A stretch of 64,000 bases of DNA from Trypanosoma brucei (GCA_000002445.1 CP000067.1:256001-320000); one strand, 5' to 3'. Shown: positions 5,003-64,000, counted from the stretch's first letter. Translations and numbers: made by a program. The notes: a model not told the origin generated them from the letters alone.

Positions 5003-5022
5003 ATATATATATATATATATAT
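5003..5022. repeat. (TA)n microsatellite followed by a T10 run
   Basis: tatatatatatatatatata at 5003-5022, then tttttttttt at about 5041-5050. Confidence 0.9.
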
Positions 5023-5221
5023 AACAAATGATTAAGTACATTTTTTTTTTCGTTTTAAATGGCAGGGGCAAACAGTGGGCCGTAGAGAGTTCCAGCACAC
5101 AGTACAATTCCACTATAAGAGTAGATTAACTTTACAAAAGGGAAATCACCAAAGAATGTGAGGGAAAATTGACTCGCCGGGATTGGGGGGGGGGAAGAAA
5201 ACCAGACATCAGTTTGTAGTG

Positions 5222-5815
5222 CTATGTCATATCTGTCCCAATCTTTCGTTCCTGGTGAAACACAAGGTTCGACGGCTCCTCCGATACGGCGTGTCTCTGC
5301 CGCTTAAACTCCTTATGAAGCCCCTCACGAAGGGCCAAAAGTTTTGTCACGGAGTCATTTACGTCACCTCCAACCTCCTTGCGCAACTCCTCCTTCGCTC
5401 GCTGAAAGTTGAGGACTGCCTGGTGCTCCCACGACGCGCTAAGGGGAACTTCCTCTTCCGTCTGCGTAGCAGGGGCAACATTACCAAACACGTAATCCTT
5501 GTGCCTCATGTATGGGTAGGGATCAATACCCTTCTGCAGACACAACCGGACACGCTCCTCCTCCTTCATATACCGCGGATCATCCATCAGATAAGGCTTC
5601 AATACGGGATAGAACACGAGAGGGAAAACAGTGATACCAGAAGACACGAAGAGTACAACTACCCACGGAGACTCTTCCCCGATGCGGCGACCCAACCGGC
5701 GCACAGGGTCTGACATTCTTGCCATTGCTCTGTTGCAACCGTCACAGAAGGCTCGCATTATGTCGACTGAACGCGTCGTGAGGCGCATCTTCATTCGCGT
5801 CCAAGCAAAGGACAT
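5222..5815 (-). CDS. hypothetical single-pass membrane protein (about 197 aa)
   Basis: Minus ORF with one hydrophobic helix (WVVVLFVSSGITVFPLVFYPVL). ORF-track start 5854 is TTG; ATG at 5815-5813. Confidence 0.4.
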   Translation of the reverse strand: MSFAWTRMKMRLTTRSVDIMRAFCDGCNRAMARMSDPVRRLGRRIGEESPWVVVLFVSSGITVFPLVFYPVLKPYLMDDPRYMKEEERVRLCLQKGIDPYPYMRHKDYVFGNVAPATQTEEEVPLSASWEHQAVLNFQRAKEELRKEVGGDVNDSVTKLLALREGLHKEFKRQRHAVSEEPSNLVFHQERKIGTDMT

Positions 5816-6117
5816 AATATGTGCGCAACTAACTTGTATCCCCTCCTGTTCCAAAGGCCAGTCAGGCTGTTGTAACCACCTCTTTTATGTGGCCTCCTCT
5901 GTTTCACTGCACGTTGTTCCCCTTGACGGAAGTTAACTACAATGCGCTGGTGGCACAAAAAAAGAATATATGCACAGACATCCCCCCAGAATAGACCCAT
6001 TGAGGATAGCACACAAGCGAAGGTGAATTAATCGCCGCACTACCTTATGGCAACACGTTACGAACGCGTAACAAGTACAACTCATAGTTCTCTCGCTACA
6101 GCGTGTTTCGTTTACTC

Positions 6118-7092
6118 TCAAAAACGGTACCTCAGTAACCTCCCCAAAAGTAGATCATCTTCATGACTCAGGGCGCCTGTGACCCACGGTACCAACTCGT
6201 ACTCCATTATAACCTCCTCGGATGCTGTCAGGTCGCGTTCCAGCGCCACCAGGGCAAAAAAGTGCTCCTCCAGGAGTCGCCGGAGTGCCTCCTCTCCGTT
6301 AACGTGGCGCCGCTCTGACTCTTGCAGAAACTCGTCGCGGTACCAGCGCGGAAGCTCCTCAACCTCAAATGCAACCTCCACTCGTGCGTTTCGTCTCCGC
6401 TCACCGCCATCGTCACCGTTTACGAGATCAACAAAAGGTATTATGCCCAGTTCGACACTACTTCCCTCCCCGTTGGTCCAGCAAGCAGGAAGTCGATGAG
6501 ACCTTGTCAATATGACATCAACAGCCCAGCGAAAGTGGTTGGGGGACGGCATCAAGTTTTTTTCGGAAAGAACCTCGTATGCTGAGCAAATTTCCTCCTG
6601 CATGCTACCTTGTACCTCTATGAAGTAGGGAAGCAGTTGGACACGGTGAAGCCGACATTGTCGGCCGCTTTCGTCTTCCATCGTCCGGAAGTCCTGCATT
6701 CGGGGAAGAACGTTTAACCAGCCCCACCACGGCGACAAACTGCGCTGATGCTCAATGGCAAGCCGCCACGCCAAACTGATCCACTCCCCTGCTGTGCAGC
6801 CCAATAGCCGCGACAGCACACCGCGGTTCAGGATCTCCAACTGCGGTGATTGCATTAAGTCCTCCTGCCGCACCCTCGCGCCCAATTTCTGAACCGTTGA
6901 AAGAGAAAATGCATGCCGTGAGGGTACAACCAGCAAAGGTGTACCACTATCGCAGGCGTCCCGTACGTAAACACCATACCCAACGGACGCGTCGCGCTTC
7001 TCAATTAAAACAGTTTGGTGAAGTCCAATCCGCTTGAGAATGGCATATGTTGCGGTGTATTCCGCGAACTTACCGCTCCGTTGCCCCCGCAT
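6118..7092 (-). CDS. SET-domain protein (SETD6 / Rubisco-LSMT-like lysine methyltransferase family)
   Basis: Motifs VLIEKRDASVGYGVYV (SET N-region), IIPFVDLVNGDDGG (like the IP.ADmlNH region) and EEVIMEYE. ORF-track start 7137 is TTG; ATG at 7092. Confidence 0.55.
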   Translation of the reverse strand: MRGQRSGKFAEYTATYAILKRIGLHQTVLIEKRDASVGYGVYVRDACDSGTPLLVVPSRHAFSLSTVQKLGARVRQEDLMQSPQLEILNRGVLSRLLGCTAGEWISLAWRLAIEHQRSLSPWWGWLNVLPRMQDFRTMEDESGRQCRLHRVQLLPYFIEVQGSMQEEICSAYEVLSEKNLMPSPNHFRWAVDVILTRSHRLPACWTNGEGSSVELGIIPFVDLVNGDDGGERRRNARVEVAFEVEELPRWYRDEFLQESERRHVNGEEALRRLLEEHFFALVALERDLTASEEVIMEYELVPWVTGALSHEDDLLLGRLLRYRF

Positions 7093-7440
7093 GCCCCATG
7101 ACGCACTCCAGGCTCGAGGACAGGCGCACACACACAACTGTTAAGACGTCTACAGACTAAAAAGCGGAGGGACAAAAAAAGAAGTGCTGGGGCAGAAAAG
7201 ACAACAAGGCAAACAAGGGAGTAGTGAAAAGGTGTGCATCCTGATTCTTTTCGGCCATGAGGACCGGGCTTTTAAAAAGGAAGCAGCCGGACAAACGGTG
7301 GAGTTGATCGTAACGCCGTTAGTAGACGGCCACAGCAAAACAGAGGAGGGTATTAAAAAAAAGGGGAGAAGCAAATGAGAATAAGGGACGCAACATCCTC
7401 TCATTCTATACCTATTGAAAACAGAAACGGCTCCACCTAC

Positions 7441-10400
7441 TTAGGTGGAGGTGGAAGTTATCCCCCGGTTCCTGCCTTTCAAAGAGGTAACGTATTCCAA
7501 CACCGCTTTGGCAGAAACAACGTTCCCGACGGTGTTCAGCATGTTTGCGTAATCAACCAGGACGTTCAGTAATACTTCTCCCAGTGTTAAGGCATCAGAG
7601 GAGTCATCTTCCGCCACTGGAAGTACAATCGGTTCCTGCAAGGATTCTCGTGTGTTGAAGGAGGGATCCTCCAACAATACCATAGCCAGCAAACCGGCAA
7701 TGTCTTCAAACTGGGAAGACTCACTAAGCAAAACGAGCACCTGAAACGGAAGGGCCTGCGAAGCCAACATTACTGCCGCTTCCATTACCTGACCGTGCCT
7801 GACCAAGTGCGAACACCATCGGCAGATAAGATCTCGTTGCTGCTTGACTGGAAGGGGAGAAAGTTTTGCAAGCACAGCACCCTCACCCCACTTGCCCGAA
7901 AGCTGCAAAGCTTTCACTGCTTCATAGAAGTGGCCCGACAGCATGTACTTATCGACGGCACTGTCTAAGTCACCCCGAGCTCGCAGAAGAGAAGCCACCC
8001 GGCTTGTTGTAAGTGTCAAAAGCTCCGAAGCTGGTCCACTGAGGGCAGCAACCGATGCAGAGATAGCCACAGCAAAATCTGACAGGTGAGGAAACCGGTT
8101 GTCTTCATGACTGACGTCCATGAGGACATCTATAGCTTTTTGTGGCTGCTGAAGCTTCAACAACTCGCGCGCAGTGAGAAACCGTTGTGAAAACACGTCA
8201 ATCTCCTTCCCTTTAGACGCTTCAAGCGCCTCAGCACGGCGTTCGTTCATGTAGACATGGTTGTTGTAAACTACCTCGGATGCCGCGGAAACTTCAGAAA
8301 AGCGATCCGCGCAGTAATAAGGTACTGGGGGTCCAACTTCTGGACCTCCCTTCCATCGTTCAACAGACTTGGACTGCTGACCACCATCGCCACCAGCCTC
8401 AGCGCCGCTACAGTTAAGACCGCGCCTCAAGCAGAACTGCATCCACAGACGCTGTCTCTCCTGTTGACCAAAAAAACGAGCTACCCAAAGGGCAATCTCA
8501 TCAGTACGACTCTGTGTAAACGCATGTTGTATCCCCTCGTAAATATACCTCGGTACCATCGTCTTCCTGTAAAGATCCAGTTCACGTGTCAAAGAGGAAA
8601 TGGCGGCGGTGATCACCTGTCCAAAAGGACCGCGACACGGAAACCGCTCAGGATTAATGCCCCGAATTAGGCAACTTGGACAGATATCACTTGAGGGTCG
8701 AACTTCAGAGGGTACCGCTGAGCATGCGACTTGGGTCTCCAGCACTGTTTGAATGTACATCCGATGCTCCGGAACAAAAAAGGCACTGTTCTGGAGTGGC
8801 CGTCTCAATGCCTTACTGAACACACTACTATTGATACTGGTGAGTAACTTGTCAACCACTACAATGTTACCGGTTAGGGTTAGAAGGAGAAGTGCATCTC
8901 CCAACCACGTTGCCCCACGCGCCTTCAGGTTGATGTCTGTGTTCTTGGAATATCCCATGCGTTCTTGACTGGATATACTCCAGACGCCGAAGGAGCCATC
9001 CGAAAAAACGACCGCAAGATACTCCTCTGACCAATTTCCTGCGTCGGAGGGTTCCCCTTTGTTATCGGATCCACCTCCGCCCTTTGATACGGCCAATGCA
9101 ATTGCAGTCTTCGCCGCGGGGATATCCTTCAGTGATCGCACATGCAACCCAGACGTTCCCACGCCAACAACAGTCACCGCACCAGAGCCGTCAACAACGA
9201 CGGAAGCATCCCTTGTTGGAGTACATAACACCCGGGTAGACGACCCGTTGGGAAACCTCGGGACCGCGTCGCGGTTTGGAACCACTTGATCCCACGACAC
9301 TGTCCAGAAACTCATGGAACCATCTGAAAAAACAATCAAAAGGAGCTCTGGAGCCCCCTTCAAACCCGCTAGGACGGGTGTAAAGATTTGGGGAGCCCAG
9401 GAGGCACTCGCCACCCCTGTCCCTTCATAGGAGTAAATGATGCGGCTTTCTGTAATGTTCCAAACCTCGAACGTGCCGCCAAAGAAAGTTAAAAGCAGGA
9501 ACGTCCCAGTCGCGTCTTGCGTGATATTCTTCATGCGTGTAGCATCAGAGTACTTGGGCTCACGCAGCACTTGGAGCACCACACCGCTGTGACAGTCAAA
9601 CAATGTCACCTGGTGATGTTGTTTAGACTGCTCAGCCTTATTCGTCACCACCCACACACATTCCTTAGAACTGTGCGGCGCGAGAAGTATGATATGAGTG
9701 TTGCTTGTATTAACAAAATTTATTCGTCTCAGGGCGTTGCTGTGTGCCACATCAACCAGGGCCAAGTAACCTGCCTCCAGGGCACAGCACAGCGTGTTGT
9801 CGCCAAGTACGCAAAACCCGGTGGGCTTCTTTAGAGCGGCGGAAAAATAACTGTCGATCACCCACCGTCGGCAATCCACCCTGTACCGCCACCGTGCCAC
9901 AGATCCATCAGAAAATATGACGGCAAAAACATTTGGTGCTGACAGAGACTGGATAACATTTGTTGCCACCTTTGACGCAATACGCGCACCCCTGACATCA
10001 GTAGACACACTCGTTGCCTTGCCCACACGTAGCAGGTACCACGCAGTGAGTCGCTGGTTTGATCCATACGAATACAAAAGTGGAAGCTGCTGCGTATCTT
10101 CAGTCAGTGTGCTCGGTGCAGAAGAGAAAATGCGTCTGAATTCACCATCACCCGCGCTGTATCGTAACACGTTCTCATCGAGAAGCAAGTTTGCCCTGCA
10201 GTCATAGACGCCCACTGAGTTTCTCGTAGCAAAGTACAGGAGCCCCTCCTGAGACTCGCTAAACACAGCGTCCACGACAGTTTCAAAACCGTCCGTGCTT
10301 TCGAATACCAAATTCTTCACACATGCACGGGGGCTTTTCCCATTCCGGTCCTGATCCTGAGAGTAAATCATACCAATTCGGTCACCAAGAACAACACAGG

Positions 10401-14245: not shown

Positions 14246-15298
14246 TCAAACAAACGATTTTCGAACGGCTGCGCACAACCCGGCGTCTCTTCCTCTCCGT
14301 GCCAACTCCTCTGCTGCCAGTCTCGTTGGCATTCGGAAAGTTAATTGCTTTACTGTGTCCGGCACGTATGTCTCCTTCACGAAAAGTGTGGTGGCGAGGG
14401 CGCGGGCCCGCACCTCCTCCTCTGCGTTTTTAGCTGCCACACAAACCTCCCACACATCACTAGGCAGCAGCTGCGTTGTAATCGACTGCTCCCGACCAAC
14501 AGAAACACCACAGGAACCCGTAGAGTCCATTTGTATAGAAGAGGACACACAACCGCTAGTAGATGTAGGGGACTTGTGGAGTACTGATGGCGATACACGG
14601 GTACGTTTCACTTGGCAACGATGTAACATGCCGTCAGTATCGTGCATGAATAACTTACACTGCACACACTGCATGCAGGGAACGTGATAGCGTTCGTCTT
14701 GGTACACTTCACTTGCGCAGTGTGCGCAAAGATCCATACCGCATTCGCTACAGTTATAAAGGTAAGTTTCATCCACCGGTTCCGCCTCCGCAGGCAGAAG
14801 GCCCTCCGGGGGGAGTTTCTTTAACCTATGAGGCTTGGCGCGCACCTCCTTGTTTTTACACCAATGGGTCACCCCACAGAAATCGCACGTCACCTCCTCT
14901 GCACCACTGTAATCAGAGATTCTCTTGATGCATAATTCATGGCCATTCCAACAACGCCACAACTTCTCCACTGGATCATACAGTGGACTACCGCTCTGCA
15001 AGAGGTACGCCATAGTCGCCACGGTATTTGTTGTCATTTCCATCTTAACGGATGAATTCATGTCCTTCCCGATGCTTTCAGTTCGCTTCCGTTTTGCGGG
15101 TGCGCGTCGCAGTGGAGACTTCACATCCGAAATATCCCATACTGCGGAATGATCCTGCAATGCCATCGCCACGAAGGGCGAAATATCACTCGGAGCGAAG
15201 GGACATTTTCTTCCCAGGGTGGTTTCCGCCATATCTCCATCATTCTTATTTGCTTGACTCTTTTCCCTCATTGCGTACATTTCAGCAGCGGTGTCCAT
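14246..15298 (-). CDS. cysteine-rich zinc-finger protein (ZZ-type-like Cys cluster)
   Basis: ATG at 15298 checked. Cys/His clusters CDFCGVTHWCKNK and YNCSECGMDLCAHCAS...CMQCVQC fit a ZZ / B-box-like pattern. Confidence 0.5.
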   Translation of the reverse strand: MDTAAEMYAMREKSQANKNDGDMAETTLGRKCPFAPSDISPFVAMALQDHSAVWDISDVKSPLRRAPAKRKRTESIGKDMNSSVKMEMTTNTVATMAYLLQSGSPLYDPVEKLWRCWNGHELCIKRISDYSGAEEVTCDFCGVTHWCKNKEVRAKPHRLKKLPPEGLLPAEAEPVDETYLYNCSECGMDLCAHCASEVYQDERYHVPCMQCVQCKLFMHDTDGMLHRCQVKRTRVSPSVLHKSPTSTSGCVSSSIQMDSTGSCGVSVGREQSITTQLLPSDVWEVCVAAKNAEEEVRARALATTLFVKETYVPDTVKQLTFRMPTRLAAEELARRGRDAGLCAAVRKSFV

Positions 15299-18200
15299 CC
15301 CCTTAAATATTCAAGTGCCCCTTTTCCTCGCCTCGCGTCCACCACGCCTCAGGGAGCACTTAAAGAGAAAATTAAAACGAAAGAAAAAAAAAAAGGGAAA
15401 ACGGTGCGCCAATATAATTGGTACTCAAAAAAAAAAAGAAATGTGGTGTACAGACATATGTTTATATACACACATACATGCATTTATTTTGAAATAAAAA
15501 GAATGAAAAGATTAGAAAGGATTAGAAAAGAGAAAGGAGTAAGGTAAAGAAAAATAAAAATAAAAATAGAGAAGAGAAGACAGAAAAGACAGAAAAAAAC
15601 CCTGTGACTTATAACAAAGTACGTTCGTTAACCTCAGTAATGCACTAGGGTTCCATTTCTAGTAGTTTTTTTTTCCTTTTTTTTTTTGCTTTCCTCCTAA
15701 TTTCATTTTACTCTGACATGTAGTCGTTTCACTGTCCTCCCCCCTCCCCTCCCACATACCTTTTCCTTTCTTTCTTTTTTTTTTCCTCCCTCCCCCCTTT
15801 CCCTTCAGTTGCTCAGCGCATCTAAACAATACCACACACAGACACATAGCTTTAGTTTCTCCACACATTTACACAATTGTTTGCGCCATTGAAGGCTCTT
15901 TCATGCATCTGCATTAATGTTGCGAACACCCCCACAACGTGGGAACAAAATAACGGATGGAAGTGGTAATAATAATAATTATTATTATTATTATTATTAT
16001 TTAAAAAGAAAAGAAAGCAGTGAGGGAAGTGACAGCCGAGTGAGTGGCAATGGCGTGGCCGGTAGGCAAAACAATTTTGAGTTTCGGAATCTCCACCACT
16101 CGATTGTGTTGTCACCATTTCCTTCCAAAGTAAAAATTAAACAAAAAAGTGTTGTTGTTTTTTTTTTCTTCCATCATTCCGCCATTTCGATAGGGGGAGT
16201 CACAGACACACAAGAGCCGGCAATATGGCATTTGTTTTGTGGTGGTTATTGTGGTTGTTGTTTACTGCCTCCACATGTGTGGCAGTAAAGGAAAAAAAAG
16301 GGAAAAAGAAGAAGAAAGAAGAAGGAAGAAGGAATAAGGAATAAGGAAGGAAAAGAAAAAAGAAAAAAGAAAAAAAAACATCCTCACTTTTCCTCCACAC
16401 GAAAGCAAAACTGGCAATCCACGAGAAAACATGAGCCTCACATCTGAAAGATGTGAGTTCAAATAAAACAATTGCGCTTGCAACAAAACCCCGAACCAGC
16501 GGGGTTTCGTTACAAATGCGCATTGAAAAGGTATGGCAAAACGAAAAAAGAAAAGAAAAGAAAAGAAAAGAAAAGAGAAAAGATATGGACTGAAATGAGT
16601 TGACACACGGATGACTAGGGATGATAAATAAACAACTGCAACGGTTTTGATAAAACGACACGTGTTCTTTATGGACTTTTTTTTCTTTTCTTGCTTTTTT
16701 TGAAAGTTTGCCACTTATCGTTGGTTGTTGTTTCTTCATTTATTTATTCTTTTTTTTTTCCTCTCTTGGTTGTCCCGTCTTTCCGCACATCACATCTTGT
16801 TGTTCATTCCGCCACATCTCCACACACTCCTTTTGTTTTCCCTGAGTTATTGTTGTTGCTGTTGTTGTTGCTATATTATTATTGTTGTTATTACTATTAT
16901 TTCACATTTTTTTTCTTTTTAAACTACTTCCGTTTTCTTACGATTTCTTGGCTTTTTATTTTATTACATTTTATTTCATTTCATTTTTACCTCTTTTGTA
17001 CACTCTACCACACCTTTTCTTTTCTTTCCTTTTGTACTCTCACAATATCACCTCTACTTATTCCTTTCTTCAAACCACGGCAGAGGAAAACATGACACGA
17101 CAAATAATGAAATAAAATTAAGTTAACGATATAATTATATGAAGAAAAAAAAAAGAAAAAAAATGACGAGTTGACGCTGTGAAAAATCTACGAGGGAATG
17201 TCAAACAGCCGCTAAACTCAGTCCTCTCATTTGCCTGACGGGGAAACAAAAATGTGACGTGCATGAAAAAAAAAAAACAAAAAAAAAAGAAAATGAAAAT
17301 GAAAATGAAAAAGTGAAAACAAATGTTGGTAAAATAAATCATCGGACCCCGTCTTCATTTTAATTATCTTTATTATTATTATTGTTTTTTTTTACCGCTG
17401 CTGTTATTGTTATCAATAAGAAAAAGCACGCCGTGGTGATAAAAAAGAAAAAAAAGTGAGAGTAGAAGTAGAAAAAAAAAAAAATAAAACAACAACAACG
17501 TCAACAACAACAACAAAAAGAGGGAGAGGAGGTTTGATCAGCTGGCGGAAGAAAAAGTTGGGATCAAATTAAGATAACTTTCAAAAAAGAAAAAAAAAGA
17601 GAGAGGGGGAAAGGAAGGAAGGGAAATAAATAAATAAATGAGGGAGAGAAAGGGGGAAAAAAAAAAGAGAGAAAAGAGAAAAGGGAAGGAGAAGGAGAAG
17701 GGAAGGAAAAAGAAAAGAAAAGAAACTCCCATTCCCATTTACTTCACTTCATCACTGGCTTACTCACTTTACATGTGCGGTAATGTAAATATAAATACAT
17801 GTATAGACACATAAAGGAGTGCGGATACCCATACGGATATTCATACAGAAATAATATAAAGATAAACAAGATCGGTACATTGGTCTCATTCATCCACTTA
17901 CTCAATTTATTTATTTATTTGACTTTTGGTGACAACTGCGCGTTCATGGAGAAGAGGAAATCATGCAGTTTGAAGTGATGGAATTTTTTAAAAAAAAAAG
18001 CGGAGGTGCGTCCCATTTGACAAAAACATAACTCCTCACATTTTTTTTTTAAAAATGCTATTATTCTGTGGAGTTTTCTCCACCGAGGCCGAAGGATTAT
18101 TGATCATGGAAGAATTTGAAGAAATGGTGCACAATAATAATAATAAGTGATGGAAATGATGAAAAGGTGGGAAAACTTTAGAAAGAGGGCAGACAAATCC

Positions 18201-18999
18201 ACCACAAAGTGCAGCACCCTTCCGTAAACAATTTTTTTAAAAAGAAAACGTTCATGATTTCTCCTCCACTCGATCACTCACTCTTTCCTTCATTCTTTCA
18301 TTCATTCATTAACTGACAGAAGGGGAAAAGAAGAAAGAAGGTTAATAAATAAATAAATAAAAAGATGAATGGCCCGAGAGAAACACGCACATACGCGCGT
18401 CACGCAATCCACTGCGCAAACACATTCTGTTTTATATTAGCCAGGAGGAGATAAACAAAGGGGGAAAAGGGAGGGGCAAACAAACAAATAAAAACATAAA
18501 ATAGCATTAAAAGGGAAAAGCCGCAAAAAAAAAAAAAGCAAACGAAAACAAGGAGAAAAGAAAAAAGCCAGTTGCTTGAAGCATATCAAGAAAAACAGAG
18601 GCACGGGGAAGAAAAATAAGTGAATTTTGAAAAGTAATTATTTTTTTTTTGAAGGGAAATTTGCCTCACTGAAGTGCGGCAACAAACGCAGGCACGACAT
18701 GCGCATGTAAATATATATATTAAAATATGCGCCCCCGTGCCTGTTAAGGGGAGAGGAGGAAACACTCAAGGGAAAAAAGAGAAAGGGAAAATATGTGCCG
18801 CACTGACGTATATACTTCTGAAACATCACATACACAGGGACACATACACAGACACAAACACACACAAAAAAAAAAAAAACTGCCTCAAGGTTAATAAAAC
18901 TGGCTGAAAGGGAAAGAGAAGGGGAGGGGAAAAAAAAAAAATGGCGGCGGCCGCGGTTACGGCAAGGGGGAAAAAAATAGTAAATAAAAATGGGGTGCC
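15299..18999. repeat. 3.7-kb gene-free low-complexity region: alternating homopurine and homopyrimidine blocks, with (AAT/ATT)n, (GTT)n, (AAAG)n, (GAAAAT)n and (AAAT)n microsatellites
   Basis: No ORF over 180 aa, and only low-complexity translations. Visible runs: aataataataattattattatt (15958-15992), aaaagaaaagaaaag (16540-16580), ttgttgttgctgttgttgttg (16846-16870), gaaaatgaaaatgaaaatg (17291-17312). Confidence 0.85.
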
Positions 19000-19665
19000 C
19001 TACAGCTCCTGAGATCTTTCAGATGATTTTTTCAGCGACCTCACGGGCGGAAGAAACCCCTCGTCATCGCAAACAGCCCCACGGCGAGCTTCCAGCGGTG
19101 GTCGGACACCACTTCGCAGGCTCGCGTTGGATAACCGCTTCCCCGGCAGATCCACCAGAGACGAGGACATTTGCAGAGACTCGCAGCTTTCCTTTGATGA
19201 GTGGTATGTGCAATCGGAGCCGATGGATGAGCTCCGTGGGGATGGCGAAGACGCTTGATCCTGCCGCATGGCTTCGAATATGTAATTGAAATGTGGATGC
19301 GCATGACCCATCAACTGTTTCGTGGAATCCCCCTGTGGTGTTACAGGCGAATGGGGTTGCTCAGTAGGAGAAGGTATATGCTTCAATTTGTATTGACGAA
19401 ATGACAATTCCCCAAGTCGCATGAACACCAAGTGATTAAGCGCTCCCTCCTTCACAGCAGACTCATGAACCCGAAGCCGCTTATCCTTATACCCTTCCAG
19501 CGGGGCAAAAAACCAATTAACATAACCCTCAGGCTGCAACTCACCCACAAAACAATACCTTCTGTAGGAAAATGTACCCCCGAAATCCAACATGGGTGAG
19601 TAGCTGACCTTCGACAGAACCATGGGGACGCCGTCAACATTCATTTCCATAGGGAGCTCCATCAT
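19000..19665 (-). CDS. hypothetical protein (about 221 aa)
   Basis: ORF-track start 19689 is GTG; ATG at 19665 (MMELPMEMNV). N-terminal beta-rich region, Ser-rich tail. No confident family. Confidence 0.45.
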   Translation of the reverse strand: MMELPMEMNVDGVPMVLSKVSYSPMLDFGGTFSYRRYCFVGELQPEGYVNWFFAPLEGYKDKRLRVHESAVKEGALNHLVFMRLGELSFRQYKLKHIPSPTEQPHSPVTPQGDSTKQLMGHAHPHFNYIFEAMRQDQASSPSPRSSSIGSDCTYHSSKESCESLQMSSSLVDLPGKRLSNASLRSGVRPPLEARRGAVCDDEGFLPPVRSLKKSSERSQEL

Positions 19666-50803: not shown

Positions 50804-53530
50804 TCACGACCATTTTTTAAGGAAAGGGTTGACGAGCACGTCCGGGTCGTCTGAAGAATCCCTCTTCCCCTCGACGACAGGAGGTATATCGCCACCCCAA
50901 ACGTGTCTCGTGGGCTGCGGAGAACCAGCTTGGTGACGCTGCGTGAAGTTCAGTGGCGCTGCGGGATACCCCGCGCTTGCTGCCGTTGGTGGTTTTGGAT
51001 GTGCTAACGAAGTCTTACTGGGCCCCATGCTTAGCTGTTTCACGGCAGAAGTTGGAACGGGCGCAAGATTCACCACAGGGGGCAGTGGGGCCGACACGCC
51101 TGCTGCAGCACCCGGAAATAGTTCCGCGGGACCACTCTGTGGTCCACCTTTAATAGGGTGGACTTCAGCCGCCTGATCTCCATGATGCTGCAGGTTCGTT
51201 GAAACCCTTCCAGCACATTGGAATTGCACTTCATTCGCTGATACCCTTTCCGTTTTAAAGTGTCTCCTTTGCTTCCAGCATTGTTGCAAAAATCCAGACG
51301 CGCTGACAGCAACAATACTAATAACTGTGAAAAAAAGTGTGCTCATATTTATCGAAGACGTTTCGCCTCCGTAAGTTCCCACATCACCACCAGCGAACGG
51401 GTTAGCATCGAGGGTTTGAGACTGCCCTGGAGCAGGTGTATTGCCGTGACTATCACCTACAGTGGTATTATCACTGGCGGTACAGCGGCAACCACCAACC
51501 GAAAAATCAGACTTATCTCGACCCCCTTGAACTGCTTCGTCGGTTAATCCAACAGTGTCCACGATTTTCGCCACAACCTGCCTAAGCTTCATAACACCTT
51601 CACGGCACTCGGGCACCAATTGATTCTGAACAACGCAGCGCCCCCTCATATTATACACATCGTCACCAATCAGGCTGGCGAGTGCGCTCGCGTCGTCAGC
51701 CAACTGCTTCAAAAGCACAACAAAATCCGTTCCATCCTCTCTGGTCTCTTCTAAAGAGACCTTGCCATCCCTCTCATAACGTTTCTGCAACTCAGTTTCA
51801 TCATCATCAGGTTGCTGTGGCTCAGCTTCATTATCATCAGGTTGCTGTGGCTCAGCTTCATTATCATCAGGTTGCTGTGGCTCAGTTTCATTATCATCAG
51901 GTTGCTGTGGCTCAGTTTCCTTATCATCAGGTTGCTGTGGCTCAGCTTCATTATCATCAGGTTGCTGTGCCTCAGTTTCCTTATCATCAGGTTGCTGTGC
52001 CTCAGTTTCATTATCATCAGGTTGCTGTGGTTCAGTTTCCTTATCATCAGGTTGCTGTGCCTCAGTTTCCTTATCATCAGGTTGCTGTGCCTCAGTTTCC
52101 TTGTCATCAGGTTGCTGTGCCTCAGTTTCCTTATCATCAGGTTGCTGTGGTTCAGTTTCCTTATCATCAGGTTGCTGTGCCTCAGTTTCCTTATCATCAG
52201 GTTGCTGTGCCTCAGTTTCCTTGTCATCAGGTTGCTGTGCCTCAGTTTCCTTATCATCAGGTTGCTGTGCCTCAGTTTCATTATCATCAGGTTGCTGTGG
52301 TTCAGTTTCCTTATCATCAGGTTGCTGTGCCTCAGTTTCCTTATCATCAGGTTGCTGTGCCTCAGTTTCCTTGTCATCAGGTTGCTGTGCCTCAGTTTCC
52401 TTATCATCAGGTTGCTGTGCCTCAGTTTCATTATCATCAGGTTGCTGTGCCTCAGTTTCATTATCATCAGGTTGCTGTGGCTCAGTTTCCTTATCATCAG
52501 GTTGCTGTGCCTCAGTTTCATTATCATCAGGTTGCTGTGCCTCAGTTTCATTATCATCAGGTTGCTGTGCCTCAGTTTCATTATCATCAGGTTGCTGTGC
52601 CTCAGTTTCCTTATCATCAGGTTGCTGTGCCTCAGTTTCCTTATCATCAGGTTGCTGTGGCTCAGTTTCCTTGTCATCAGGTTGCTGTGCCTCAGTTTCA
52701 TTATCATCAGGTTGCTGTGCCTCAGTTTCATTATCATCAGGTTGCTGTGCCTCAGTTTCCTTATCATCAGGTTGCTGTGCCTCAGTTTCCTTGTCATCAG
52801 GTTGCTGTGCCTCAGTTTCCTTGTCATCAGGTTGCTGTGCCTCAGTTTCATTGTCATCAGGTTGCTGTGGTTCACTTTCATTATCATCAGGTTGCTGTGC
52901 CTCAGTTTCCTTATCATCAGGTTGCTGTGCCTCAGTTTCCTTATCATCAGGTTGCTGTGGTTCACTTTCATTATCATCAGGTTGCTGTGCCTCAGTTTCC
53001 TTGTCATCAGGTTGCTGTGCCTCAGTTTCATTGTCATCAGGTTGCTGTGGTTCACTTTCATTATCATCAGGTTGCTGTGCCTCAGTTTCCTTATCATCAG
53101 GTTGCTGTGCCTCAGTTTCCTTATCATCAGGTTGCTGTGGTTCACTTTCATTATCATCAGGTTGCTGTGCCTCAGTTTCCTTGTCATCTGGCGGCTTTAC
53201 ACGAGCTGATCCATTGGTGGTGTGTGCTGCATCCCTCTCCTCTTCGTTGTGGTTTTTGGCTCTCATCACTTGGCTGCCGCGGCCCACGTTGTTCTCGTCC
53301 GCCTCCTGACGTCCTTGGGCGCCAGTCTTGAGCTGAGTATCGGTTCTGTGGAGGCCGCCATCGCCTTCGACAGGAAACCGAGGTGCTCTGTTGCTTCTGC
53401 GCACTGCTTTCAATGTCCGTGCCTCGCCCACTTTACCTGTGTTAGCGTGTGCTATACAAGTAGAACACCAGCCTGCAACGCATGACACAACGGTTAACAG
53501 AAGTATCTTTGCGGTGTGGAGATGACGCAT
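50804..53530 (-). CDS. repetitive acidic type I membrane (surface) protein: signal peptide, about 47 copies of a QQPDD(K/N)E(T/S)E(A/P) decapeptide, an about 150-aa domain, TM helix, and a Pro-rich cytoplasmic tail
   Basis: ATG at 53530. N-terminal signal peptide MRHLHTAKILLLTVVSCVAGWCSTCIAHA. TM helix LFFTVISIVAVSASGFLQQCW at about residue 735. It is the only one of six open frames across the repeat with a signal peptide, a TM helix and the strand of the gene array. Confidence 0.75.
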   Translation of the reverse strand: MRHLHTAKILLLTVVSCVAGWCSTCIAHANTGKVGEARTLKAVRRSNRAPRFPVEGDGGLHRTDTQLKTGAQGRQEADENNVGRGSQVMRAKNHNEEERDAAHTTNGSARVKPPDDKETEAQQPDDNESEPQQPDDKETEAQQPDDKETEAQQPDDNESEPQQPDDNETEAQQPDDKETEAQQPDDNESEPQQPDDKETEAQQPDDKETEAQQPDDNESEPQQPDDNETEAQQPDDKETEAQQPDDKETEAQQPDDKETEAQQPDDNETEAQQPDDNETEAQQPDDKETEPQQPDDKETEAQQPDDKETEAQQPDDNETEAQQPDDNETEAQQPDDNETEAQQPDDKETEPQQPDDNETEAQQPDDNETEAQQPDDKETEAQQPDDKETEAQQPDDKETEAQQPDDKETEPQQPDDNETEAQQPDDKETEAQQPDDKETEAQQPDDKETEAQQPDDKETEPQQPDDKETEAQQPDDKETEAQQPDDKETEAQQPDDKETEPQQPDDNETEAQQPDDKETEAQQPDDNEAEPQQPDDKETEPQQPDDNETEPQQPDDNEAEPQQPDDNEAEPQQPDDDETELQKRYERDGKVSLEETREDGTDFVVLLKQLADDASALASLIGDDVYNMRGRCVVQNQLVPECREGVMKLRQVVAKIVDTVGLTDEAVQGGRDKSDFSVGGCRCTASDNTTVGDSHGNTPAPGQSQTLDANPFAGGDVGTYGGETSSINMSTLFFTVISIVAVSASGFLQQCWKQRRHFKTERVSANEVQFQCAGRVSTNLQHHGDQAAEVHPIKGGPQSGPAELFPGAAAGVSAPLPPVVNLAPVPTSAVKQLSMGPSKTSLAHPKPPTAASAGYPAAPLNFTQRHQAGSPQPTRHVWGGDIPPVVEGKRDSSDDPDVLVNPFLKKWS
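51791..53190. repeat. tandem array of about 47 near-identical 30-bp units (consensus plus strand ttatcatcaggttgctgtgcctcagtttcc)
   Basis: Directly visible in the sequence. Units differ at 3-4 positions only (c/a, g/c, a/g), which gives the K/N, T/S and A/P alternations. All six frames are open across it. Confidence 0.95.
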
Positions 53531-56826: not shown

Positions 56827-58057
56827 TTGATTTGGTGGCGAGTGATATCAGATCTTGACGTCGAGCTAATGAGACTCAGTACGAAAAAAGTGCACGCAAC
56901 CTTTGTTTTCGTGGCAATGACAAAAGGTTCAAGTACCTTTAATGTGCGTAAAGAAGTTTTTTATAAAAAACTAAATTCATTTTTTGAAGCCCCACCAATC
57001 GGAACCCATCCACTCCTTCAATACTAACCACAGTGAAGTACTGGGATGTTATCGTGCAAAATAAAAAGGGTTGTGCATACGTGCTTATGCAACATAATTG
57101 ATTTCGTTCCACCCCCGTGTCAGATTTTCCTGGTTAGCACCTCCAACGTTTTGCTGGTACCTTTAAACGACAAATCTGTTTAGACAACATAGGAAAAGGC
57201 AAAGGAGTGAAAAGAAAACGTTAAAGGTGCCGCTGAAGGTTTGCACCACCTCAAAAAAACAAATAAATAAATAAAACGACGGTGGGGTAGAGAAGCGACT
57301 GCTGGTGGCGTAAACGGTGGATGCTGCAACCTCCGAAAAATGGCATATCTCTCTCAGGTCGTGGAGAGCAAACCATTCAACTAGAATGGCGAAAAGGAAG
57401 CACGGCAGACAAGTGCGCTTCTTCAAATCGCACGCACGCACGCACCATCACAGTGAAAAGGGGTATATGACACCTTTAGTTGGCTTCATGAACCAATGTA
57501 CAAATATTAGTAATACCATGTCCGAAAAATACAAGTCGCATTGCGCAATCAAACCGACGACGGGTTTGAGAAAGATGTGCCTTCAAGTAGTTGGTAAAAG
57601 GAGGGAAAGTTCGTACACACAAGCGAATGTGAGAGAGCCGCAATAATGGTTTCCCCGCTCTTCTGTTATTACACCGCCTGAATGAGACATTGTCCCTTCC
57701 CATCACCCTCAACAAGTTGATTACACCCATGGCACCAAATCTCCGCGTTGTGGAAACACGCGGCACGCCCATAATAAGCAGGCAAACTCACTACCACCCC
57801 ACACACATTTACGTCATTGGGAAGTTCTTGGCGCTCAACTTGGCTTGGGTGACAGATACAGCATTTTTTCTCTAGTTTCAGCGGCATAAAAATGGTTAGC
57901 TGCGGTTGAGCAGGACGTCAACAATCGTTAAATTCGGTGAATGGATCCTCCCCACCACCCCACCACCAAAAGGGAAAAAATGCAATCACGCGCAAACACG
58001 GCAAATCATAAAAACGCACTGAGGGGCCGCTTGATCATTAGGTAACCACACATTTGC

Positions 58058-58060
<3 letters not shown>

Positions 58061-58088
<28 letters not shown>
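58061..58088. repeat. (AC)n microsatellite
   Basis: acacac... x14 at 58061-58088. Confidence 0.9.
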
Positions 58089-61000
58089 CAAAATGGCACC
58101 ATCCTTAAAGTGAGGCGGAAGGGTAAGGGACATTTTCACCTTCCCATCAATCACTTAAAGCGACATAAGTGGCAGTAAGTGTGGCAACTTCAAGGGAAAA
58201 GGCAGTCCAAGTTGACAAGAGAAGGCAACATTATCCCAGCGGATATTCAACAAAATGTGAGATGCTGGGTTCTATCTAGTAAGCAGAACGGCATCTTACC
58301 CCTTCCTTTGAAGGGTGAACCCACATAATTAAACAAAGAGAAAAAGAAAATATCTGAACAAAAAACCAACGTACTCACTTATAAGTGTATATTGTAGCTT
58401 GAATGAAGACAGTGAGGCGCAGCACTCGATAAAGAATAAAATTTTGTTGTCAACCGTTCGCCGCAGTGAAAGATCACATAAAGGAAATACAGTGCGGGAA
58501 TCACCGCAAAACTTTCCAGAGTCCGTCTTCATCCTTCAAATCAACCTCCATAAAGACGACGAGTTGGAACAGCAAATTCCGAGCCGCTACAACCTCCAGC
58601 CGACGTAGTGCAAAACTGTGAAGCTCTCACATATTTAGCCGACGATCCAATCCTGTTTTTTTCTCTTTTCACACACTGCTGCATTCAAAAGTAGAAAGCG
58701 AGCAGAACAATTTGAACTTAAAAAACGGGGAAGCTAGGCTGTGACATATATCCCACAGCTGTGATCACCCAACTCCCAGCGCTGGGGATAAAACTGGAAA
58801 GTTAATCAGGGAAACAAACGAATGCATCAGACGCTCCTACAGGAAAAAAAAAGATCTGACTCATTCTAATTGACCCAGAAGCGCAAAAGGTTATAGTATC
58901 GCTGCTGTGAAGAGTAGCTTCATCACCACAACCGTCGCGTGGCATCAGCAACCCCTAACACCACATTACAGCAACTGTTACACGGTTTTTTAAAAAAAAA
59001 TCGTACCGTTAAGGGTACCAGCCTAAACAAAGACGTAAAAGCGTCCCTAATAGCATCGATTATTGAAAATGCTGAGTGAAAAATGTGCCTCACGTACCAA
59101 AGCAGTGCGTAAGCTCTTCTTATGCACAACTCAACCCAAGCCTTTCGGGGTCAAGGAAGTTTTTTTCTTGGATGGCCGTATGTACAGCCCAGCACTCGAG
59201 GGAAGCGCAGTCCGCGCAAAGGTAGTAAGGCATTGGGGTGGTGAACCCTCAAAAATGAAATTCCAGCGCATCACTACGAACGCATAGTCAAGCGTTCGGA
59301 ACCCTTGTACAAAACCAAACATCAAAAAGAGTTGCTGATGCAAATGGCGTACAAGTGAGGGCGCTCACAGAAGTTGTTAGCGCCTGCACCACTGTCACCC
59401 CCTCCCCTTCCCATCTCTCCATATGTCGGGTCAGTTATGTGCTTACCGATGGGCAAAACGGTTGAATAATAAGCAACAAACCGTAGTAACCTTCATTTTG
59501 ACTTCAACACAAAAACATTCTTGGCTTTCGCAGATATCCCCGCTCCAAGAGGATTGAAAGGACCGCACATACAACTGAACCTCCAAACAGCCAAAAGGGG
59601 GAAAGTCACCGGCACAACCTAACATCCACCACGCAAGAAGGATACAGAAGTGCCACGTCACAAAAATCAGTACATTCACTACACTAATACCTTCGCTTCG
59701 GACTGGTTACAACCAGTTCGCCGCGAGATAGGGCGCTACTGGATGAAGCTCGCAACCCCTTCACACCTCGCCCACAAAAGTCCAGGATACTTTACAGCAC
59801 ATTGTATGGTCCCCTTCAACGGCGACGACCACGACTGCATTGCACAATTTTGACGGATGGTTTTAAAAAAACAAGCGGAAGAAACAGGGGAATGTGCACA
59901 TACGATCCAACAAAGAACGTAGTAGCAGAATCAGGCTCACGAATTTCATCCTTGCAGCATCTTGCCGCTCCGGAAACCATATAAACAGTAACTTGAAAAC
60001 ACATTTCCACTACTACGCATACACAGAAAATAATGTGTGGTGCGCCGCGGAAGAACGTGCACGCCGACACATAGCAGATGCATCAATAAAGCAAACTAAG
60101 ACCAAATAACACAGGTTCAAACGGTTACATTGGTCGCATCACAAAGTAGCACTGGTAGCCGGTACAAATGCTAACAATGCCCAAACTTCTCAACGAATCA
60201 ACAAGTTATGTCCCTTCGTTGTTGAAAGAATCACATGATCATAAACACACAAGTACGTTTCCACAACCTACCTTCTCCCAGTCCACAAGACAAATAACGG
60301 ACTGAACAGTCCACTATGATGTCCCTTATTACTTTTTTTTCTTTAAAAAAATGACAAAGAACAGTTCTTCTGTCATAGTGTTGCTCCCAGAAAGTCCCAT
60401 TGAACACATGGGGTGGTAGAACACACGTAACCTCATTACCACTCGTGGTGTGGTACCTACATTGTACCCAATATGCAGATCGGTTATCAGAATCAGTTAA
60501 TCACACCAACACTGCAATTCTTTCCGCGAGTACCGACACATGTTATTCGAAGTGACGGCGTGATGTCAGCGACACGTGGCGACGGCGGTGCCGTAACCCC
60601 AGCGCCTGCTTCATGGCCAACATAAATAAGTTCCTGGTAATAGCTGGTTAAGACCTATTGCACCAACTATGTCGAATTACCGCCCAAGACTTAAAAACCG
60701 CGGCAGCTGAAGGAGGGAATGACACAGAATGGGTCAGGAAGCGGGAGAGAAATGATGATATTCACCTCCCCTACTTCTATTTGCAAAGCTTTAAAAAAAA
60801 CTCTACTATTCTCCATCCACCTCATAGCTGAGGTTGAGACCCTCAAATGAATTTCCACAGAAACACACACACACACCCGAAACCTTCTGTAACCCACCGC
60901 ACCAAACCATCATTGGGATCTCCGCTTCCGACTCTTTGCATGGATCAAGTGCAGGAAGATACATTACCAAGGAAAGAACACAAACGTAACTAGCACTACA

Positions 61001-61905
61001 AAAAAAAAAACTAACCTAATGAGGAGGGGCACAATGGAAGAAAATGCCCTGAAAGGACCGTGACACTTCGCCAGCACCATGGAAATCAAGCACGATTCTT
61101 CCAATCGCTTATAAAGGCACGAGTTTGACCACTCGCGTTTAACCTGGAATAGCAGAAGCCAGCAATCACTGTGTTCCAGATGGGGACCGTTATCCAGGCA
61201 TCGCAAGGCGGACCCGCTGCAACAGATACTTCTGTAAGACTAGGAAATATTCAAACAGAGAAATAGGTGAGGAAAACTGTATTTGTTCGAGGTGAAAAAA
61301 AACTCCCAGGAGCATCTGCCAACAAACACACGGGTGTGGAGTTCGGTGTAATCGCCCCCTGATGGTGGCGGGGGCGGCGTACCCTTAGAGGGGCTAAGTT
61401 CACGCGCAAGATGGGAACGCAGCCAAATATGCTTAAAAGCAGGTACAGTCACTCGCTTCAATGGGGGTGATAGCCTCGGACGGCGCGGTAGAACCCGAGT
61501 GGACACACTTCTGAGGCCACACCATCCTCACCACGTTACATCCGAATGCGGTGCTGGAACTTGCTTCGCCCGCGAATTTTATTGAAGGCACAGTGTCTTT
61601 CCAACGGGGAAAGAGGTTACCTCTGATGAGAGGATGTGTGAAATCACCGCCACACTCTATCTCCAAACGGCATTGGGGAAAAATTGGAAAGGTGGCGGAA
61701 ATAACTGCAGGGCCCTCTCCCGAAAAGGAAGAAAAAAGTCGCCATTAGCGCTTCCTACGACAAAATGTGAAAGCTTTGTACATCTTTATGAAGGATTGGA
61801 AAGAAAAACGAGGGGAAGTATTTTAGAACACACTCCGTCACTGACGAAAGCGGAAACCCCAGGGCGAGGCCGACACCTCGTCACTCACCCTTCCCACTAG
61901 ATGCG

Positions 61906-61910
61906 GAAAA
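61906..61910 (-). terminator. Pol III terminator T-run (T5) downstream of the tRNA-Pro
   Basis: Minus-strand GC then TTTTT follows the discriminator base (plus strand aaaaa at 61906-61910). Confidence 0.5.
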
Positions 61911-61912
61911 AG

Positions 61913-61984
61913 CGGGCCGTTGCGGGAATCGAACCCGCGGCCTCCTGTACCCGAAACAGGAATCATGCCACTAGACCAAACGGC
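61913..61984 (-). tRNA. tRNA-Pro (anticodon CGG)
   Basis: Minus-strand read GGCCGTTTGGTCTAGTGGCATGATTCCTGTTTCGGGTACAGGAGGCCGCGGGTTCGATTCCCGCAACGGCCC. 7-bp acceptor stem GGCCGTT/AACGGCC. A box TGGTCTAGTGG. Anticodon stem CCTGT/ACAGG with loop TTCGGGT (anticodon CGG, G37). B box GGTTCGATTCC. Nearly identical to canonical eukaryotic tRNA-Pro. Confidence 0.85.
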
Positions 61985-62059
61985 CACCGCGTCAGGGGCG
62001 ATAATTAATATACTTCTGGGTGCCACCTAAATTTCCACGTTCAGTCGTTGTTGACATTT

Positions 62060-62236
62060 GTTCAGGTGAGGCGATGCCGGCCACCTCAACGTGGTGCCAT
62101 GGTCCAGTACCCCGTATCATCGGGGGAAGCCAAGAGCCAGCAGCATTCCTTTCATGGGGAACAATGCTTTGCTTTTGCAACGGCACCGAGCAGCACTGAG
62201 ATGAGCCGCGCCGTGATGGAGAACATTTTTTTTTTG
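62060..62236 (+). ncRNA. candidate Pol III small RNA, divergent from the tRNA-Pro and ending in a T9 run (speculative)
   Basis: The stretch lies about 80-250 nt upstream of the tRNA 5' end on the opposite strand. GC-rich with hairpins (ccacctcaacgtgg; ccccgtatcatcgggg) and ends ...gagaacattttttttttg (T9 at 62227-62236). In T. brucei, Pol III snRNA-type genes pair with a divergent upstream tRNA whose A/B boxes act as the promoter. No match to a small RNA I can recall. Confidence 0.15.
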
Positions 62237-63467
62237 TAGAGCCCTGGGCACGTGTTCTCGTGCTATCGGCAGTTTGTTCTATGAATCACTGATTTGTTTC
62301 CGTTGGACTGATAAGTGTTCATGAGGCAATTTTCACCTTGCAGTGGCAGCTGTAGTCTCTCGACTGAGTGAAAGATGTGTGTGAGTTTGTCGTCCGAAGC
62401 GAAAAGGTGATGTAGTTGGCGGCGCTTAATGAAATAGCTGCGGTGCTGTTGACTGTTCCTCATGCGTGGAACGGGCGTAAAGCGGCATTTAAGAGGGTGC
62501 TGCATGTTTGATGTGTTTTCACTTCCGGAATAATTCGGTGGTGGCGTAGACGTACTACTATGTTTGTTGCAGCGGCCGTAGCGCTGAGTTATTGCACCGG
62601 TCAAGAAGTAGAACTAGAGCACGGGGAAAATGAAAAACCAGTAGTTTTGTGCTCAGGCGTATACCCAAAGTGTTCCGTATGTGTTGAGTAGGATAAACGG
62701 AGAAAAAAATGGATGAGAGCGTGGCGTTCACCAGAGTGGGTGCAATTAGAGGGTCCCCGAACTAACGGTTAAAAAATATATCACTTTTCCAGGTTGTCAC
62801 AGGAGTTTTGTCACATGAGCCCGCTATGTGCAGCCCCTAAGCATCAAGGGAAGAATCTTTGTAAGTATAGGAACACCGATCGTAATAAATGGGCGCAGAG
62901 ACTGCCGGTGTTGTTGAGTTCTAGATTAAGGTAAACACAAGTTTTTAATTCCGAGCACGAAGTGTGTTGTAATTGAAGGGTATGTATCATTTATAGTGTG
63001 TGCTACTGGGTGTTTCTCACGCACAAGAAATACTTTGTTGATACCACAAAATCAAGAATACTGTAGTCTTTTTCCTCACGGAATGTAGAAAAATCGAAGG
63101 TGAATGCAAGGTCGTCACTTTAGCGTATACAATGGTTTCATCTCATTTTTTATCTTTCTTTTACTGACCTGGAAATAACGCTTTTGTTACCCCGGAGTCA
63201 GATGATAGGTGGGCCTTTCAGGGAGACGGGGAACAAATACAATGCAAGTGGAGATGACAAGGGTGTGGTAGATGAATGATTCGCAATATGGGGGGAACTT
63301 GCGGTAAATTTACTATCTCTTGTACAGGTGTTGGTTGTATGATCGTACTTAGTATTGTGGAAGTGTTTTTTTTTCACCATTGTTTTGTACGTGTTGTATC
63401 TGTTGTTGTTGGGTGGTAAAGTGTTTATATTTTGTTTTTTGTGTGTTTGGGTAGGGAATTGTAGGTA

Positions 63468-64000
63468 ATGAAAGTCAAGATTATAGAATGGTTGGTCTTC
63501 CTATCTTTTGTTATTTATACCGAAGGGGCCGAAGACGAAGGTCGCTGCAGACTGGTAGATGATCATTCTTTTAAAAATTTACATGAATCCGTATGCTATC
63601 TCAGCTGCCTTTCGGATGCACTAAACAAATTATACACCAATGGAGAGAGGAAGTTGCTTGTGAATGAGGAAGTATATGCGAACGCATCTCGTATATTGGA
63701 TGATATGGAAGGGAGAGCAGGTGAAAGTGTCAAATATTTGAGTGTTATTAGTGATGCAATGGGAGGGAAACATGATAAATTGGAAAAACTTATATCTTAT
63801 GGAAATACAATGGGAGACCTGGTGGCTAAGGTAGGTGGATTATTTGCTGATGTTAATGAAAGTGTGAGGGTGGTGAGAGAGCTGTTGCCCACTGCCCTCA
63901 TGGAAGCAAATAGATACTATACGGCCAGTGCAGAAATTACAAGGACTGTGTGGGATGATGTTAAGGCGGTAGAGGGCAGCGACGAGGAAGCTGCAAAGTG
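63468..64000 (+). CDS. N-terminal part of a secreted/surface-type protein (signal peptide plus helical ectodomain), running past the window end
   Basis: ATG at 63468, preceded by a T/G-rich tract and AG (..gtagggaattgtaggtaATG). Predicted signal peptide MKVKIIEWLVFLSFVIYTEGAED. 177 codons with no stop. AT-rich third codon positions, unlike the upstream genes. The helical, Cys-poor sequence resembles ectodomains of trypanosome surface protein families. Confidence 0.5.
   Translation, partial: MKVKIIEWLVFLSFVIYTEGAEDEGRCRLVDDHSFKNLHESVCYLSCLSDALNKLYTNGERKLLVNEEVYANASRILDDMEGRAGESVKYLSVISDAMGGKHDKLEKLISYGNTMGDLVAKVGGLFADVNESVRVVRELLPTALMEANRYYTASAEITRTVWDDVKAVEGSDEEAAK

Follow-up and report, generated by a model that had tools for sequence, protein, structure and literature searches.

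What marks the limit between two transcription units that diverge across 6.5 kb without an obvious gene? The question is raised by the right-hand end of a 64,000-nt stretch of Trypanosoma brucei TREU927 chromosome 4 (256001-320000, hereafter the window; a published coordinate minus 256000 gives the window position). Here an array of minus-strand open reading frames (ORFs) extends from the window's left end up to 56826, a plus-strand ORF opens with an ATG at 63468, and a single tRNA-Pro gene stands between them; no ORF of at least 120 aa was found within 56827-63467. An earlier reading made from the DNA alone (the sequence-only reading) had put the two gene limits at about 56.8 and 63.47 kb, in agreement with these ORFs, and had taken the interval for a start zone of RNA polymerase II (Pol II) marked by G/T-rich sequence. 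In our opinion, the locus is better described as a Pol II boundary organised around genes of RNA polymerase III (Pol III), enlarged in the T. brucei lineage by gene loss and insertions, a reading to which we assign a probability of about 85%. The direct observations concern the anatomy of the locus, its synteny, the identity of a retroposon, composition statistics and the mapping onto published tables of transcripts and units. The locus, both Pol II units, the tRNA gene and the transcripts of the ORF-free arm were already published in 2009-2010; the original finding is therefore correct in outline and not new.

The mapping onto published tables is secure. After the offset of 256000, an AG precedes all 12 of the 12 tested published major spliced-leader (SL) sites on the right strand, and the published tRNA-Pro position (317914..317985, complement) coincides exactly with the gene in the window. 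This is the sole tRNA gene inside the window and the single tRNA-Pro(CGG) gene of T. brucei (Padilla-Mejia 2009 Table S1). Its box A (61968-61978), box B (61925-61935) and T5 terminator (61907-61911) can all be read from the sequence.

Table S14 of Kolev 2010 (PMC2936537), which summarises 5'-triphosphate RNA-seq and lists units without start coordinates, contains two putative Pol II units at this place, both of the type 'next to tRNA': Tb927.4.1190->Tb927.4.300 on the minus strand, and Tb927.4.1200, a single-ORF unit, on the plus strand. According to the same study (PMC2936537), unit starts near tRNA genes are enriched in 5'-triphosphate reads, Pol II is strongly stopped by tRNA genes, and tRNA-adjacent start sites are intrinsically bidirectional. 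The ORF map, Table S14 and the SL sites, checked in the sequence, together give a first ORF and a first SL site with no same-strand gene upstream, as at the start of a polycistronic unit. The proposal of a bidirectional Pol II start around a central tRNA-Pro therefore agrees with the published units, which begin on both sides of it. Moreover, an SL-capped transcript of one strand across the entire interval, which would have spoken against that proposal, is not seen in the published maps.

The description of the locus as a divergent strand-switch region stands only locally. The genes do diverge, but the plus unit consists of one ESAG1 gene, Tb927.4.1200 being its only annotated ORF, and what follows it is another long minus-strand unit, Tb927.4.2080->Tb927.4.1220 (Kolev 2010 Table S14; PMC2936537). 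The long units flanking the locus are both minus-strand, and two multi-gene units diverging from one point are not found. This arrangement resembles the tRNA-associated Pol II starts (Siegel et al. 2009; Kolev et al. 2010), in which a Pol III gene likewise heads a long polycistronic unit and units start on both sides; indeed, Tb927.4.1190 and Tb927.4.1200 are themselves listed there. Nothing essential separates the locus from that class, its own traits being the one-ORF plus unit and 4.3 kb of SL-capped non-coding transcripts before the first minus ORF. With the classical divergent strand-switch regions and their GT-rich dispersed promoters (Wedel et al. 2017) it shares the local divergence and a G/T-rich sequence on each transcribed strand. 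However, the long flanking units here are both minus, the G/T content is no higher than in intergenic DNA inside the unit, and the switch point holds a Pol III gene and a retroposon fragment. The parts of the locus are listed in Table 1.

Table 1. Features of the boundary, from left to right, in window positions
Feature	Position	Strand	Basis or remark
LicD-family gene Tb927.4.1190, 203 aa	56215..56826	-	Pfam LicD; first annotated ORF of long minus Pol II unit
Tb4.NT.8, 2856 nt, trans-spliced and polyadenylated, without conserved ORF	56978..59834	-	Kolev 2010 Table S7
Tb4.NT.9, 1244 nt, trans-spliced and polyadenylated	59995..61239	-	Kolev 2010 Table S7
Putative Pol II initiation interval of the minus unit	61240..61913	-	First SL site and tRNA 3' end
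tRNA-Pro(CGG), Tb927.4.1195	61914..61985	-	ARAGORN; Rfam 58.5 bits; Padilla-Mejia 2009 Table S1
ingi/RIME-type non-LTR retroposon 5' fragment	62066..62273	+	Pr77 match, 73/79 positions
G/T-rich leader region upstream of Tb927.4.1200 SL site	62274..63454	+	Plus-strand G+T 0.588
ESAG1-family ORF Tb927.4.1200, extends beyond window end	63468..64000	+	Pfam ESAG1 (PF03238), E = 2.5e-42

Transcript data narrow the place where the minus unit can start. The LicD protein, identical across T. b. gambiense, T. equiperdum and TREU927 (AAZ10710), has its SL site at 56865 (312865 in Kolev 2010 Table S12), with an AG before it on the minus strand. Between LicD and tRNA-Pro, in what is here called the left arm, Table S7 of Kolev 2010 (PMC2936537) lists two further minus-strand transcripts, Tb4.NT.8 (315834->312978 on the chromosome) and Tb4.NT.9 (317239->315995), and a polypyrimidine tract followed by AG is present at both of their splice sites (59834 and 61239). 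Neither transcript is in the Kolev 2010 tables of conserved or peptide-supported ORFs. These two trans-spliced RNAs (56978-61239) cover most of 57.0-61.2 kb, which the sequence-only reading had counted as part of the initiation zone. Since SL-capped minus-strand transcripts occupy that span, the minus-strand start would have to fall within about 61240-61913, barring read-through of the tRNA gene by Pol II; these exact limits follow from the first SL site and the 3' end of the tRNA gene. The interval so defined has a G+C content of 0.51 and a minus-strand G+T of 0.537, the lowest of the arm.

Comparison with other trypanosomes, whose orthologous loci were fetched via the LicD orthologues, indicates what the region may have looked like before. 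One strand carries tRNA-Asn, (Tyr/Leu) and tRNA-Thr in T. cruzi, T. grayi and T. melophagium; the other carries the U6 small nuclear RNA (snRNA) gene, tRNA-Pro, a 2066-aa ORF and LicD, with U6 ending about 50 nt before tRNA-Pro. L. major retains the cluster of Asn-Tyr-Thr and Pro. The 2066-aa gene takes up 6.2 kb between tRNA-Pro and LicD (3061-9261 of the T. cruzi locus L009 and 1671-7874 of the T. grayi locus L011). A word-seeded search, in which 8000 candidates were scored, returned homologues of its protein from stercorarian trypanosomes, T. theileri and Bodo saltans, and from no others. Where this gene sits elsewhere, T. brucei carries 4.9 kb without an ORF. The left arm shows no similarity to the 3.8 kb upstream of LicD in T. 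congolense, and no conserved non-coding blocks were found between them. Its divergence from T. b. gambiense is about 2%, against about 0.3% for adjacent genes, or about 6-fold faster.

On the other side of tRNA-Pro, the Pol III genes appear to have been moved apart. In TREU927, U6, tRNA-Thr and tRNA-Tyr are located at 325.8-326.2 kb of chromosome 4, 7.8 kb to the right of tRNA-Pro, whereas 3.4 kb separate U6 from tRNA-Pro in T. b. gambiense. In the latter, an ingi fragment adjoins tRNA-Pro and ESAG1 is absent; the TREU927 gap holds the fragment, ESAG1 and more.

The identity of the retroposon fragment is well supported. At 73 of 79 positions, its Pr77 hallmark (62066-62144) has the same base as the ingi consensus published for T. 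brucei (PMC4748587 Additional file 1), and the 29-nt Pr77 core has one mismatch, for a chance expectation of 0. The CGTG downstream promoter element is found at 62090-62093, that is, at +25 to +28 with +1 at 62066, and an internal T10 run at 62226-62235. A sensitive blastn search detected a T. cruzi relative (L009 16429-16641, E ~1e-14), and at 62270-62273 the copies of brucei, gambiense and T. cruzi cease to resemble one another. Other hallmarks of a full retroposon were not observed: stop codons fill the forward frames of 62066-63467, leaving no retroposon ORF, no long A-run follows the element, and no flanking direct repeat was found that could be a target-site duplication. There was also no Rfam match to the element and no second Pr77 in the window. 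Judged by its sequence, the element is a 208-nt 5' fragment of an ingi/RIME retroposon and not a complete element.

The fragment shares with the ingi/RIME retroposons (L1Tc/ingi clade) the Pr77 match, the position of CGTG and the location at a unit boundary, where retroposons are known to accumulate (PMC4748587; PMC9566855). It differs from them in consisting of about 208 nt of the 5' end, without ORF, poly(A) tail or target-site duplication, and in the replacement of its first four bases. Pr77 positions 1-4 read GTGA in place of the consensus CCCT, and three of the seven Watson-Crick pairs between positions 1-7 and 31-37 are kept. If the first helix of the hepatitis delta virus (HDV)-like ribozyme is assigned correctly, loss of CCCT would weaken or break its 5' strand. 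Pr77-like 5' ends occur twice in the syntenic neighbourhood of T. cruzi, both on the minus strand: at the L009 position given above and at L008 107-174. One of these lies in an intergenic gap of the syntenic unit, and the other past the tRNA cluster.

The same fragment is the point at which the strains part. Colinearity between brucei and gambiense stops at 62270, inside the retroposon fragment, while T. equiperdum (L002) stays colinear with brucei. The leader at 62274-63454 occurs in T. b. brucei as well as in T. equiperdum but is missing from T. b. gambiense. Past 62270, gambiense (L001 1426-4540) has an unrelated 3.1 kb without ESAG1, which makes the retroposon the site of a structural polymorphism in the T. 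brucei group; a tblastn search for ESAG1 in this gambiense locus returned zero matches. Neither the right arm (62274-64000) nor the 3.1-kb gambiense insert has any similarity to the fetched loci, except for the T. equiperdum one. The ESAG1 assignment of Tb927.4.1200 is based on a Pfam match spanning residues 98-174 of the partial ORF, and its SL site (319455, or 63455 in the window) is preceded by AG. In T. equiperdum, L002 957-1377 is a second copy of the ESAG1 start, 85% identical to window 63342-63762; the contig has runs of N, and the copy may be a local duplication or an assembly artefact.

Taken together, these data are consistent with the following history. The ancestral order would have been tRNA-Asn/Tyr/Thr on one strand and U6 snRNA, tRNA-Pro, the 2066-aa gene and LicD on the other. 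In TREU927, tRNA-Pro would still head the long minus unit Tb927.4.1190->Tb927.4.300. Pol II would start within about 670 nt just downstream of the tRNA gene (61240-61913) and then transcribe Tb4.NT.9 and Tb4.NT.8, apparently non-coding, ahead of LicD. These two transcripts appear to take the position of the stercorarian 2066-aa gene, and the ORF-free stretch may be so long because they stand where that gene is in stercorarian trypanosomes. On the other side, 7.8 kb would have been inserted between tRNA-Pro and U6, beginning 80 bp from the tRNA gene with the 208-nt ingi/RIME fragment; this lineage-specific insertion probably brought the lone ESAG1 gene, which would form the one-gene plus Pol II unit. 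In a sense, the boundary would have grown on both sides, by loss of the 2066-aa gene on one, and on the other by insertion of a retroposon fragment and ESAG1 between Pol III genes ancestrally about 50 nt apart. We infer both the order of these evolutionary events and the role of the tRNA gene as a Pol II barrier.

Several points weigh against this reading. First, T. brucei H2A.Z domains extend over several kb. Such a domain may well cover much of 57-62 kb, and the 'zone' of the sequence-only reading could then hold in the chromatin sense. Second, a very divergent T. brucei homologue of the 2066-aa protein elsewhere in the genome is possible, given that the search was word-seeded and scored 8000 candidates. 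Third, the comparison with T. congolense covers 3.8 kb upstream of LicD, which are likewise ORF-free. Finally, the interval 61240-61913 is deduced and not observed, as Table S14 lists units without coordinates.

The sequence-only reading itself preferred another explanation, in which a single bidirectional Pol II promoter is dispersed over all 6.5 kb and mirrored GT-rich elements, working outward from the tRNA gene, bring about initiation and the deposition of H2A.Z. The mirrored composition on which it is based is certainly there. Minus-strand G+T is 0.575 over 57000-61913 and plus-strand G+T is 0.590 over 62260-63467; the cumulative (GT-AC) curve reaches its lowest point at 61988, 3 bases off the tRNA 5' end, and the best two-segment composition break falls at 62038. 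The plus strand of the left arm, which reads A/C-rich, contains both the reported (AC)14 run (58060-58087) and the C/A-rich motif ccccaccaccccaccacc (57950-57967). There is also a precedent: in start regions, G/T-rich 10-mers of the coding strand are able to drive transcription in one direction and the deposition of H2A.Z (Wedel 2017; PMC5579346). In that study such 10-mers are at least 6-fold commoner on the coding strand, and this is the case in both arms here, with 297 on the transcribed strand vs 42 on the other in the left arm (7:1) and 87 vs 8 in the right arm (11:1). Furthermore, Table S14 of Kolev 2010 has both units begin beside the tRNA gene.

However, the enrichment does not set the start region apart from the rest of the unit. 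Measured in tiles of 250 nt, the left arm, at 0.575, does not differ from the inter-ORF DNA inside the Tb927.4.1190->Tb927.4.300 unit, at 0.571 (Mann-Whitney p = 0.96); coding DNA is lower, at 0.528 (p = 5e-5). The left arm has 60.5 G/T-rich 10-mers per kb and the intergenic DNA inside the unit 66.2 per kb, so the second feature of the Wedel 2017 start regions, an excess over the rest of the unit, is not found. G/T content is lowest in the DNA that precedes the first SL site, 56978-61239 already gives rise to SL-capped RNAs, and the SPARC study could identify no common motif under T. brucei promoters. For these reasons we regard one dispersed promoter as unlikely. The claim that G/T-richness marks a start zone fails in particular: the left arm is at the ordinary intergenic level, and the putative initiation stretch has the lowest value in it. 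What the mirrored G/T skew shows is the strand asymmetry usual in transcribed, non-coding DNA of trypanosomes, and it flips at the tRNA gene because transcription changes direction there. This is a caution for genome scans of trypanosomes from sequence alone, as G/T skew tells the direction of transcription and not the site of initiation; the start interval proposed here is in fact the least skewed part of the left arm.

The position of the retroposon fragment suggests another role for it. In T. cruzi, Pr77 is a Pol II-dependent internal promoter. The fragment starts 80 bp from tRNA-Pro, where the strand skew flips, and it may have been co-opted, either as a focused Pol II promoter of the ESAG1 unit or as a Pol III template driven from the A and B boxes of the tRNA gene. 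We consider such co-option quite unlikely. In the Pol III version, if true, the fragment would be read at the canonical spacing (about 100 nt) as far as the T10 run, giving a small RNA of retroposon origin about 145 nt long.

It might also be supposed that the ORF-free 4.9-kb left arm, instead of being dedicated non-coding DNA, represents a decayed gene or else a degenerate ingi-related element (DIRE, ~5 kb). The length of the arm is near that of ingi, retroposons gather at such boundaries (PMC4748587; PMC9566855), and a 6.2-kb gene occupies the same position in T. cruzi and T. grayi. But a tblastn search of the left arm for a remnant of the 2066-aa protein gave a best E of only 0.097, and none of its six frames contains a Pfam domain, be it reverse transcriptase, endonuclease or any other. 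The lack of a second Pr77 in the window and the composition of the arm, that of ordinary intergenic DNA, likewise speak against such a relic, which we hold to be highly doubtful.

The sequence-only reading had also seen room for unannotated small RNAs. The candidate considered here was the G+C-rich stretch at 62.07-62.24 kb as a Pol III gene using the divergent upstream tRNA as its promoter, as snRNA, 7SL and vault RNA genes do. Its geometry is similar to theirs, with about 100 nt between it and the tRNA 5' end and with a T-run after it. Box A is reported 104-106 bp upstream of tRNA-companion genes (PMC4950102), and box A of tRNA-Pro gives a predicted +1 at about 62083-62088. Some 100 nt lie between the tRNA-Pro 5' end and 62085, the spacing also seen from tRNA-Thr to U6 in gambiense (L001 1230 -> 1330), the T10 run could end Pol III transcription, and the stretch folds as a long helix. 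Nevertheless, such a gene is very improbable, as Rfam gives zero family matches even at E <= 10, the folding z-scores (-1.0 and -1.7) are unremarkable, the sequence is that of a retroposon family (the Pr77 hallmark, 73/79) and of no small-RNA family, the T. cruzi relative sits elsewhere and has no T-run, and in T. cruzi and T. grayi the position is occupied by U6 in the other orientation. No small-RNA gene was found in the region, and the structured element beside the tRNA gene is the 5' end of a retroposon.

Related candidates were rejected as well. A vault RNA (TBsRNA-10) beside tRNA-Pro was considered, but published vtRNA primers (PMC12547018 Table S1) have no match in the window within 3 mismatches, and the vault RNA gene lies elsewhere in the genome. 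Within 56.8-63.5 kb, the tRNA is the only Rfam family, weak matches to suhB and mir-204 being due to chance in T- and A-runs. The tRNA-Thr/tRNA-Pro gaps of other trypanosomes, where a conserved small RNA might have been expected, hold U6 snRNA in the other orientation. Fragments of the candidate sequence had no match in a literature search. A separate observation near the tRNA gene is a 17-nt inverted repeat, 60993-61009 / 62226-62242 (GCACTACAAAAAAAAAA / TTTTTTTTTTGTAGAGC), which presents a T-run and then GTAG on each outward-reading strand. Its arms are about 0.9 kb and 0.25 kb from the tRNA gene, and it is probably a chance occurrence.

Two other places in the window deviate from their surroundings. 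The first is a 908-aa minus-strand ORF (50804-53530), in part of which, especially 52000-53000, the plus strand is 40% T, opposite to the usual skew. It has long overlapping ORFs in other frames and on the opposite strand, its divergence from gambiense is high, at 25 differences per 500 nt, and it resembles a low-complexity or repeat-coding region. The second is 15000-19000, where G+C is unusually low (0.33-0.40) and a 2.26-kb gap without ORFs (16740-18999) lies within the minus unit.

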